Origin: a virus
Lineage: Duplodnaviria > Heunggongvirae > Uroviricota > Caudoviricetes
IMG/VR virus record: IMGVR_UViG_2563366825_000009
Coordinates: 1 to 16,694 of that record
Direction: 5' to 3' (one strand)
DNA: 16,694 nucleotides
Shown here: in pieces, positions 10,469 to 11,020 of the stretch
How the letters are laid out: each line of letters starts with the position of its first letter
Position numbering within the stretch: position 1 is the stretch's first letter
The notes under the pieces: generated by a model
Told to the model about the DNA's origin: nothing
Databases searched by the model: none
What the model saw: only the letters and a program-made list of their open reading frames with translations
Made by a program: the position numbers and the translations under genes

Positions 10469-11020
10469 ATGATGCGAAAAATACTCAGGACAACTCTTAT
10501 CACTACAATTTTTTTTTCACCAATAGTACAGGCGGAGTGGTATACAGTAACAGACGACGATTTGTTCTCTGATGGTCACACGGCGCTGATGGTAGGAAAA
10601 AAAACATCAAATCCTGAAGAGATTGATAATCACATGATTGCTCTTAATTGTACGCCAAGATCCCTAACATTCTCATTAGTCGAAAAGGACATAGAAGAAG
10701 AAACATCGGCCCCAATTTATTCATTTCCAATAGATGTGGCAATAAAAATTGACAAAAATAGTATAATAAGGCTCAACGCAACACTTTCAAGAAGAAACTC
10801 AATGCTAACACAAGCTATCACTGAACGTACTGATACTGAAATGAAGAAAATTAAAATTATACTCAGGCAACTCAGAGATGCTAAACATAGAGTGAGGGTC
10901 GGGATTCGACGCCAAGACATCACACGAGAAGATGCCATGACATATTCTTTCAACTTTAATGTATTAGGCTCCACTGGTGCTGTTAATAAATTTATCACTG
11001 CATGCGGAATAAAGCTGTAA
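10469..11020 (+). CDS. Secreted/periplasmic protein of unknown function (183 aa; predicted signal peptide, cleavage after VQA), low-GC moron-like gene
   Basis: N-terminus MMRKILRTTLITTIFFSPIVQA|EW has a basic n-region, hydrophobic core and AXA-like site; no lipobox cysteine. Coding sequence is visibly AT-rich compared with neighbouring phage genes. Starts 20 nt downstream of the IS target duplication. Confidence 0.65.
   Translation: MMRKILRTTLITTIFFSPIVQAEWYTVTDDDLFSDGHTALMVGKKTSNPEEIDNHMIALNCTPRSLTFSLVEKDIEEETSAPIYSFPIDVAIKIDKNSIIRLNATLSRRNSMLTQAITERTDTEMKKIKIILRQLRDAKHRVRVGIRRQDITREDAMTYSFNFNVLGSTGAVNKFITACGIKL

Follow-up and report, generated by a model that had tools for sequence, protein, structure and literature searches.

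What kind of protein is encoded by the short, AT-rich gene at the head of the early-left operon of a lambda-like Escherichia coli prophage, and what has become of that gene now that a transposable element lies just upstream of it? The prophage DNA is a 16,694-nucleotide stretch (IMG/VR virus record IMGVR_UViG_2563366825_000009, positions 1 to 16,694), which was analysed at its full length and is called the window below. The gene is an open reading frame (ORF) at 10469-11020 on the plus strand, stop codon included; it starts with ATG, runs for 183 codons without internal stops on translation, and specifies the 183-aa precursor of a predicted exported protein that matches protein family PHROG 19473 (E = 8.7e-39). 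A first-pass annotation of the locus had proposed a horizontally acquired, secreted, moron-like product. The reading that we favour, and to which we would give a probability of roughly 0.6, is that the ORF encodes a small, soluble, Sec-exported cargo protein of a mobile family, which stands in the slot at the head of the operon of the early-left promoter (pL), has been severed from its upstream region by the insertion sequence (IS) ISEc12, and has a role in the periplasm or envelope.

The export of the protein is the best-marked part of this reading. Residues 1-22, MMRKILRTTLITTIFFSPIVQA (10469-10534, plus strand), are followed by Glu-Trp and form a tripartite N-terminus: the n-region, MMRKILR, is basic, and a hydrophobic core leads to the motif V-Q-A|E, at which signal peptidase I (SPase-I) is predicted to cut. 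The strongest support for a Sec signal peptide, as claimed at first pass, is its conservation in all 72 aligned relatives, where it has a median length of 21 residues and ends, in a family-wide A-x-A pattern, one residue ahead of an invariant Trp. The n-region is positively charged in 97% of these 72 sequences, position -1 is Ala in 62 of them, position -3 is Ala, Val or Ser in 61, and none contains a lipobox. The ORF protein itself shows the basic n-region, hydrophobic h-region and small residues at -3 and -1 of a Sec/SPase-I substrate, and neither a lipobox nor a hydrophobic (transmembrane) segment was found in its mature part. It is, by prediction, a protein exported through Sec and cleaved after VQA22, and the mature protein (161 aa, approximately 18.3 kDa, isoelectric point approximately 8; 10535-11017, plus strand) would be periplasmic. 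Across the family W24, C61 and C179 are invariant and D31, F33, D95, N110, G145 and F175 nearly so; because two invariant cysteines occur in an exported protein, a C61-C179 disulfide probably stabilises it.

Structure prediction and a fold search, both suggested in the first-pass annotation, gave a confident model and an IalB-like fold. The model built from the 72-sequence alignment (predicted local distance difference test score, pLDDT, 88.2; predicted template modelling score, pTM, 0.83) superseded a poor one made from four sequences (pLDDT 53); beyond the signal helix it comprises two helices and nine strands, so that the mature protein has a two-helix, beta-rich fold. We judged this predicted fold to be the same as that of the solved IalB structure 3dtd, at an identity of 10% in the structural alignment. 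Foldseek returned no match in the PDB at E <= 0.001, and a search of BFVD found only uncharacterised proteins of T4-like phages, with template modelling (TM) scores of 0.4-0.5. The Pfam IalB model (PF06776) did not match the window protein at E <= 10 and matched only one of 106 relatives (P0050), at 18.7 bits against a cut-off of 22.1; a search of PDB sequences with the family profile produced chance-level matches only and did not retrieve 3dtd, and neither did phmmer with P0050. Because the sequence link is so weak, we regard the ORF protein as IalB-like in its predicted fold and do not file it under the IalB family. IalB (invasion-associated locus B), about 20 kDa in size, has a signal peptide, eleven strands and two helices, and how it works is unknown (PMC6299047); in Sinorhizobium meliloti the IalB-domain protein RgsG is periplasmic and required for polar growth (PMC7327166). 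The roles recorded for the family are erythrocyte invasion and polar envelope growth (PMC6299047, PMC7327166). The two groups also differ in where their genes lie: the family of Bartonella IalB (PDB 3dtd, PF06776), which includes RgsG, is encoded by alphaproteobacterial chromosomal genes, whereas PHROG 19473 is mostly prophage cargo.

In composition, the gene stands apart from its surroundings. Its guanine-plus-cytosine (GC) content is 37.3%, compared with a mean of 48.0% (standard deviation 3.4%) for 552-nt segments of the window; it is the lowest-GC stretch of that length, and segments that avoid the ORF reach a minimum of 39.1%. At third codon positions its GC is 32.1%, against 41-57% for the tabulated ORFs of the window, one other excepted. 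The codons ATA, AGA, AGG, CGA, CTA and CGG, which are rare in E. coli, make up 12.6% of the ORF and 3.7% of 15 pooled phage genes, and a synonymous-usage model built from the same 15 genes scores the ORF at -0.094, the lowest value among the genes tested, where the others range from -0.028 to +0.093. The low GC and AT-rich codon usage noticed at first pass were thus borne out on computation. The gene is a compositional outlier, and this AT-rich accessory gene has remained intact in its lambda-like E. coli prophage.

PHROG 19473, annotated as being of 'unknown function', was the sole family match of the ORF protein and was matched by all 72 relatives tested; in Pfam and NCBIfam the ORF protein had no match even at E <= 10. 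With clustering at 50% identity, an exhaustive profile search gave 113 representatives, almost all of them 160-180 aa long. The family is seen in prophages and IMG/VR contigs; searches of 50,697 GenBank phage records by tblastn, with the window protein and a Mu-type homologue, found nothing, nor did a related-locus search of GTDB species representatives with alignment A1. The exact window protein is present in many E. coli assemblies (125 contigs, 300 index blocks), always under the name 'hypothetical'.

The homologues lie in varied company. One, 45% identical to the window protein, closes the gene order behind com/mom, at about 190 bp from a Mu-type right end, in Mu-like prophages that are inserted at six different chromosomal sites. 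Another, 39% identical, belongs to a Citrobacter lambdoid prophage, where it stands between lysis cassette and terminase on the strand opposite to its neighbours; it must therefore be independently transcribed, and a terminator-like hairpin follows its stop codon directly. In a Zymobacter P2-like prophage the homologue is downstream of and co-oriented with an S24 repressor gene, with one small ORF between them, and in an alphaproteobacterial prophage it begins 14 bp after an S24 repressor gene in the same orientation. About 35 IMG/VR contigs carry homologues at 38-39% identity, and further copies adjoin a tRNA gene and a resolvase, or a large serine recombinase. Prophages of the Mu-like, P2-like and other lambdoid types carry homologues, at 38-45% identity, in unrelated cargo positions, and in all five loci checked the homologue is 7-11 GC points below its locus. 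On the strength of these varied positions and of the low GC, PHROG 19473 genes behave as mobile accessory cargo. As an observation on the Zymobacter locus (L015, 6001-7494), the homologue is followed by a Tae4 amidase effector gene and a Tai4 immunity gene, the group lying between the repressor and tail genes.

Compared with annotated relatives, the window is recognisable as a lambdoid prophage. Its minus strand carries genes for NinG, a DUF1367 protein, a primase-like protein and a helicase, and cro; its plus strand carries cI (5953-6666), the ORF region, an AntA-type antirepressor gene (11286-11921), kil, gamL, recT and exo. A candidate pL, TTTACA-17-TATATT, lies at 7341-7369 on the plus strand (10/12 in the promoter scan) and overlaps an operator-like sequence, ATCACCGCAAGT. 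The sequence overlapping pL, ATCACCGCAAGTTATATTTATT, has a near-reverse-complement at 5926-5947, in the interval between cro and cI (inverted-repeat pair I2), and the two sites are candidates for the mirror arrangement expected of oL/pL and oR/pR. Behind pL comes a conserved leader of about 285 nt (7376-7658, plus strand) with a perfect rrn-type boxA, TGCTCTTTAACAA, at 7449-7461; it was found in 224 E. coli genomes, with 97-99% identity in about 220, and homology with most of them ends at 7658. From there a 203-bp AT-rich segment (7659-7861, plus strand; about 39% GC) leads to the ORF in the genomes that have it, namely three of 5426 complete E. coli genomes and many draft assemblies, and this segment travels with the ORF (the two are contiguous in L001 and L062-L069). 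The interval from pL to the ORF contains no conserved reading frame; a 52-codon frame at 7661-7819 was rejected as a gene, as its ATG reads GTG and is followed by a stop codon in L001. In two relatives (L009, L010) the slot after the leader holds a Rha-family gene instead. On the right, the cargo is bounded by a strong plus-strand promoter, TTGACA-18-TATATT (11043-11072, 11/12 in the scan), which we assign to the downstream antirepressor module and not to the ORF because Stx2 phages, too, have the 88-bp stretch 11043-11130 ahead of their antirepressor genes.

Since the leader homology ends at 7658 and the right edge of the cargo precedes the antirepressor promoter, the ORF appears to be the first gene of the early-left operon, as first proposed, in a slot that varies between otherwise similar phages. 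Horizontal acquisition, which had been suspected from composition, is now also upheld by the rarity of the gene among complete E. coli genomes, by the different filling of the slot in relatives and by the scatter of its homologues over unrelated cargo positions.

The first-pass annotation had placed an IS21 target site about 20 bp upstream of the ORF, which is correct and could be made exact. An element of 2581 bp at 7862-10442 (plus strand) matches, at 100% identity, E. coli copies that bear the annotation ISEc12 (IS21 family); it contains istA (8055-9596) and istB (9608-10357), has 5'-TG...CA-3' termini and imperfect terminal inverted repeats starting TGCGTATT, and is flanked by a 7-bp target-site duplication, GTCAGTC, at 7855-7861 and 10443-10449. 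The duplication ends 19 bp, and the IS itself 26 bp, before the ATG. Removal in silico of the IS and one repeat copy yields a 100% match over 3512 bp to the E. coli prophages L062 and L064, and all eight uninterrupted loci examined have a single GTCAGTC at the insertion spot. Because excision restores the uninterrupted sequence in this way, the insertion is a recent, clean transposition. It parts the ORF from pL and from its AT-rich segment, so that the expression context has indeed been altered, and the upstream promoters now stand 2.6 kb away.

The favoured reading runs as follows. Proteins of PHROG 19473, with their IalB-like beta-rich fold, serve as dispensable cargo of several temperate phage types; in this prophage lineage the ORF fills the variable first-gene slot downstream of pL; and in this genome the coding sequence, still intact, is now 2.6 kb from pL and from its own AT-rich segment, and any residual expression would depend on transcription that either leaves the IS or passes through it.

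Morons, as defined by Hendrix and Juhala, are extra DNA of distinct composition, with their own promoter and terminator, expressed from a repressed prophage (reviewed in PMC3594210). The ORF is extra DNA in a differently filled slot (the leader occurs in 224 genomes, the ORF in 3 of 5426 complete ones, and the Rha-family gene takes its place in L009 and L010), and its composition is distinct (37.3% against 48.0% GC). For a private promoter and terminator, consensus scans of the window show only a weak promoter candidate, TTCAAG (7778-7783) and TATACT (7801-7806) with a 17-nt spacer, below the scan threshold, and no terminator.

Among the closest parallels are bor and lom of lambda, cor of phi80 and N15, and llp of T5, which are likewise accessory genes of deviant composition, present or absent between conserved flanks, with exported envelope or periplasmic products. 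In lambda, bor sits between the lysis genes and terminase, and the Citrobacter homologue thus occupies a bor-like position. However, the products differ in type: lipoproteins in the case of Bor, Cor and Llp, an outer-membrane beta-barrel in that of Lom, and a protein with neither lipobox nor membrane segment in that of the ORF. None of these proteins resembles the ORF protein in sequence, and the scans gave the ORF no threshold private promoter and no terminator. A second parallel is the rexAB type of repressor-linked cargo in lambda, since the homologues in two unrelated prophages are likewise downstream of, and co-oriented with, an S24 repressor gene, and in the lineage of the window the adjoining interval between cI and pL houses restriction-modification, HicAB or Panacea-domain cassettes. 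The ORF of the window differs from that type in lying downstream of pL and outside the cI transcript, and its product has no homology to RexA or RexB.

Several observations weigh against the favoured reading. No function has been demonstrated for any member of the family, and PADLOC models of known defence and exclusion families gave no convincing match to the ORF protein (a 17-bit hit to Csx23, which covered a single helix at residues 116-154 and occurred in 2 of 72 members, was rejected as spurious). Two alphaproteobacterial members have no obvious phage neighbours. Between pL and the ORF, in the window as in the uninterrupted locus L001, the consensus scan gave no plus-strand promoter with a score of 9/12 or more, a result that leaves room for a real promoter, and no terminator was predicted between the ORF stop codon and the promoter at 11043; expression from the repressed prophage is for these reasons unproven. 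Finally, close E. coli alleles (the ORF against L001 and L057) have a ratio of non-synonymous to synonymous substitution rates (dN/dS) of 0.9-1.45, based on only 6-31 differences, and the changes are mostly non-synonymous (5 of 6 in one comparison, and 20 amino-acid changes out of 29 nucleotide changes in another). A dN/dS near 1 is compatible with relaxed constraint or with diversifying selection in an arms race, and the invariant residues of the deep family show that the fold has been under constraint in the long term.

The most likely alternative is that the ORF is an ordinary early lytic gene, transcribed from pL only after induction or infection and acting transiently in the periplasm, for example in early exclusion or receptor masking. 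The ORF reads in the direction of pL and comes first behind that promoter, the scans gave it neither a threshold private promoter nor a private terminator, and the gene that fills the slot in relatives, of the Rha family, is another early regulatory gene. However, homologues are found in positions of a kind usual for lysogen-expressed or independently transcribed genes, behind a repressor gene or on the opposite strand between lysis genes and terminase, and the 203-bp AT-rich upstream segment travels with the ORF. We consider a purely lytic role unlikely, but a serious contender.

That the gene is functionally dead in this genome, silenced by the IS and decaying through near-neutral substitutions without selection, is in our view a rather unlikely outcome. 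ISEc12 does separate the ORF from all upstream promoters, and the idea of a hybrid promoter directed outward from the right IS end was rejected, as the 26 bp from there to the ATG offer no usable -10 hexamer to pair with a -35 in the IS end; the dN/dS of about 1 would also fit decay. However, the frame is intact and the protein is identical to that of uninterrupted prophages, so that the insertion is recent and no decay is visible; the family-wide invariant residues show long-term purifying selection; and, as no plus-strand terminator was predicted between istB and the ORF, transcription through istAB would not be blocked and low-level read-through into the ORF is possible.

Lastly, an orphan immunity-type protein, directed not against phages but against a periplasm-acting toxin such as a type VI secretion system (T6SS) amidase or other effector, a colicin or a lysozyme, is very improbable, for all that periplasmic immunity proteins are in many cases small and soluble, exported through Sec and equipped with a disulfide, as the ORF protein would be if its inferred disulfide forms, that the Zymobacter homologue lies directly upstream of a Tae4/Tai4 effector-immunity pair, and that the dN/dS of close alleles is near 1.

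Returning to the reading of the ORF as exported, mobile cargo, we can offer only a tentative suggestion of what the mature protein does there: it may bind a component of the envelope or periplasm and so protect a lysogenic or infected cell, by blocking the entry of superinfecting phages or by neutralising a periplasmic toxin. Still more speculative, and in our estimate improbable, is the extension of this suggestion to PHROG 19473 as a whole, as an unrecognised class of phage-borne periplasmic protection factors built on the IalB fold, placed behind a repressor gene or at the head of the pL operon, which would block toxins or the entry of competing phage DNA. Were it true, it would give a first mechanistic handle on the IalB superfamily, the biochemical function of which is still unknown, and it would explain the near-neutral to positive dN/dS as the signature of an arms race.

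Exported prophage cargo is a recurring source of phage-resistance and host-interaction traits. In itself the ORF is a hypothetical protein gene in a typical cargo slot and an ordinary example of mobile prophage cargo. PHROG 19473 is widespread, with its 113 clusters in several prophage types, yet it has no annotation, Pfam model or studied member, and the structural link to IalB provides a testable starting point for both families. Furthermore, the otherwise identical prophages with and without ISEc12 form a natural pair in which the expression and role of the ORF could be compared. Beyond what was seen at first pass, this analysis resolves the IS insertion exactly, delimits the variable slot, shows that the family exists and how widely it is spread, identifies its recurring positions as cargo of four kinds of mobile element and predicts an IalB-like fold.

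The surroundings of the ORF yielded some further observations. No N-like ORF was found in the pL leader, nor is one annotated there in any relative; the leader has no Rfam match, and its folding energy is unremarkable (z = -1.7). Lambdoid phages with this leader may use N-independent antitermination at pL, or none. Downstream of the ORF, the stretch 11043-11130 has counterparts of 90% identity upstream of Stx2a-phage antirepressor genes and in >1700 E. coli genomes. A hairpin with a U7 tract at about 11106-11137, beyond the promoter at 11043-11072, would yield a transcript of about 60 nt, and the Rfam small RNA (sRNA) sRNA-Xcc1 has a full-length match at 11157-11245 (69.5 bits; gathering score 53). 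Taken together, the module at 11043-11285 looks like an RNA-controlled antirepressor switch.

On the other side of pL, defence or toxin-antitoxin cassettes are exchanged in the interval between cI and pL (6674-7220; compared in L001, L009, L065 and L066); in relatives they comprise an Eco57I-type methylase with a PstI/BsuBI-type endonuclease, HicAB, or a Panacea (SocA) domain pair. Of the endonuclease gene, the window retains only approximately the last 317 bp (6882-7198), and L062 and L064 have the same deletion. An inverted repeat at 6680-6721, 14 bp past the cI stop codon, has 19-nt arms that are 89% complementary across a 4-nt gap; relatives diverge there, and the repeat could either terminate transcription or mark a recombination boundary. 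The prophage sRNA svsR (PMC12803456), which relates to the 3' end of cI, was set aside as having no connection with the ORF. Finally, the sok antitoxin RNA has a full-length Rfam match (118 bits) at 429-603 on the minus strand, which implies that the left end of the window holds a toxin-antitoxin module of the hok/sok type.
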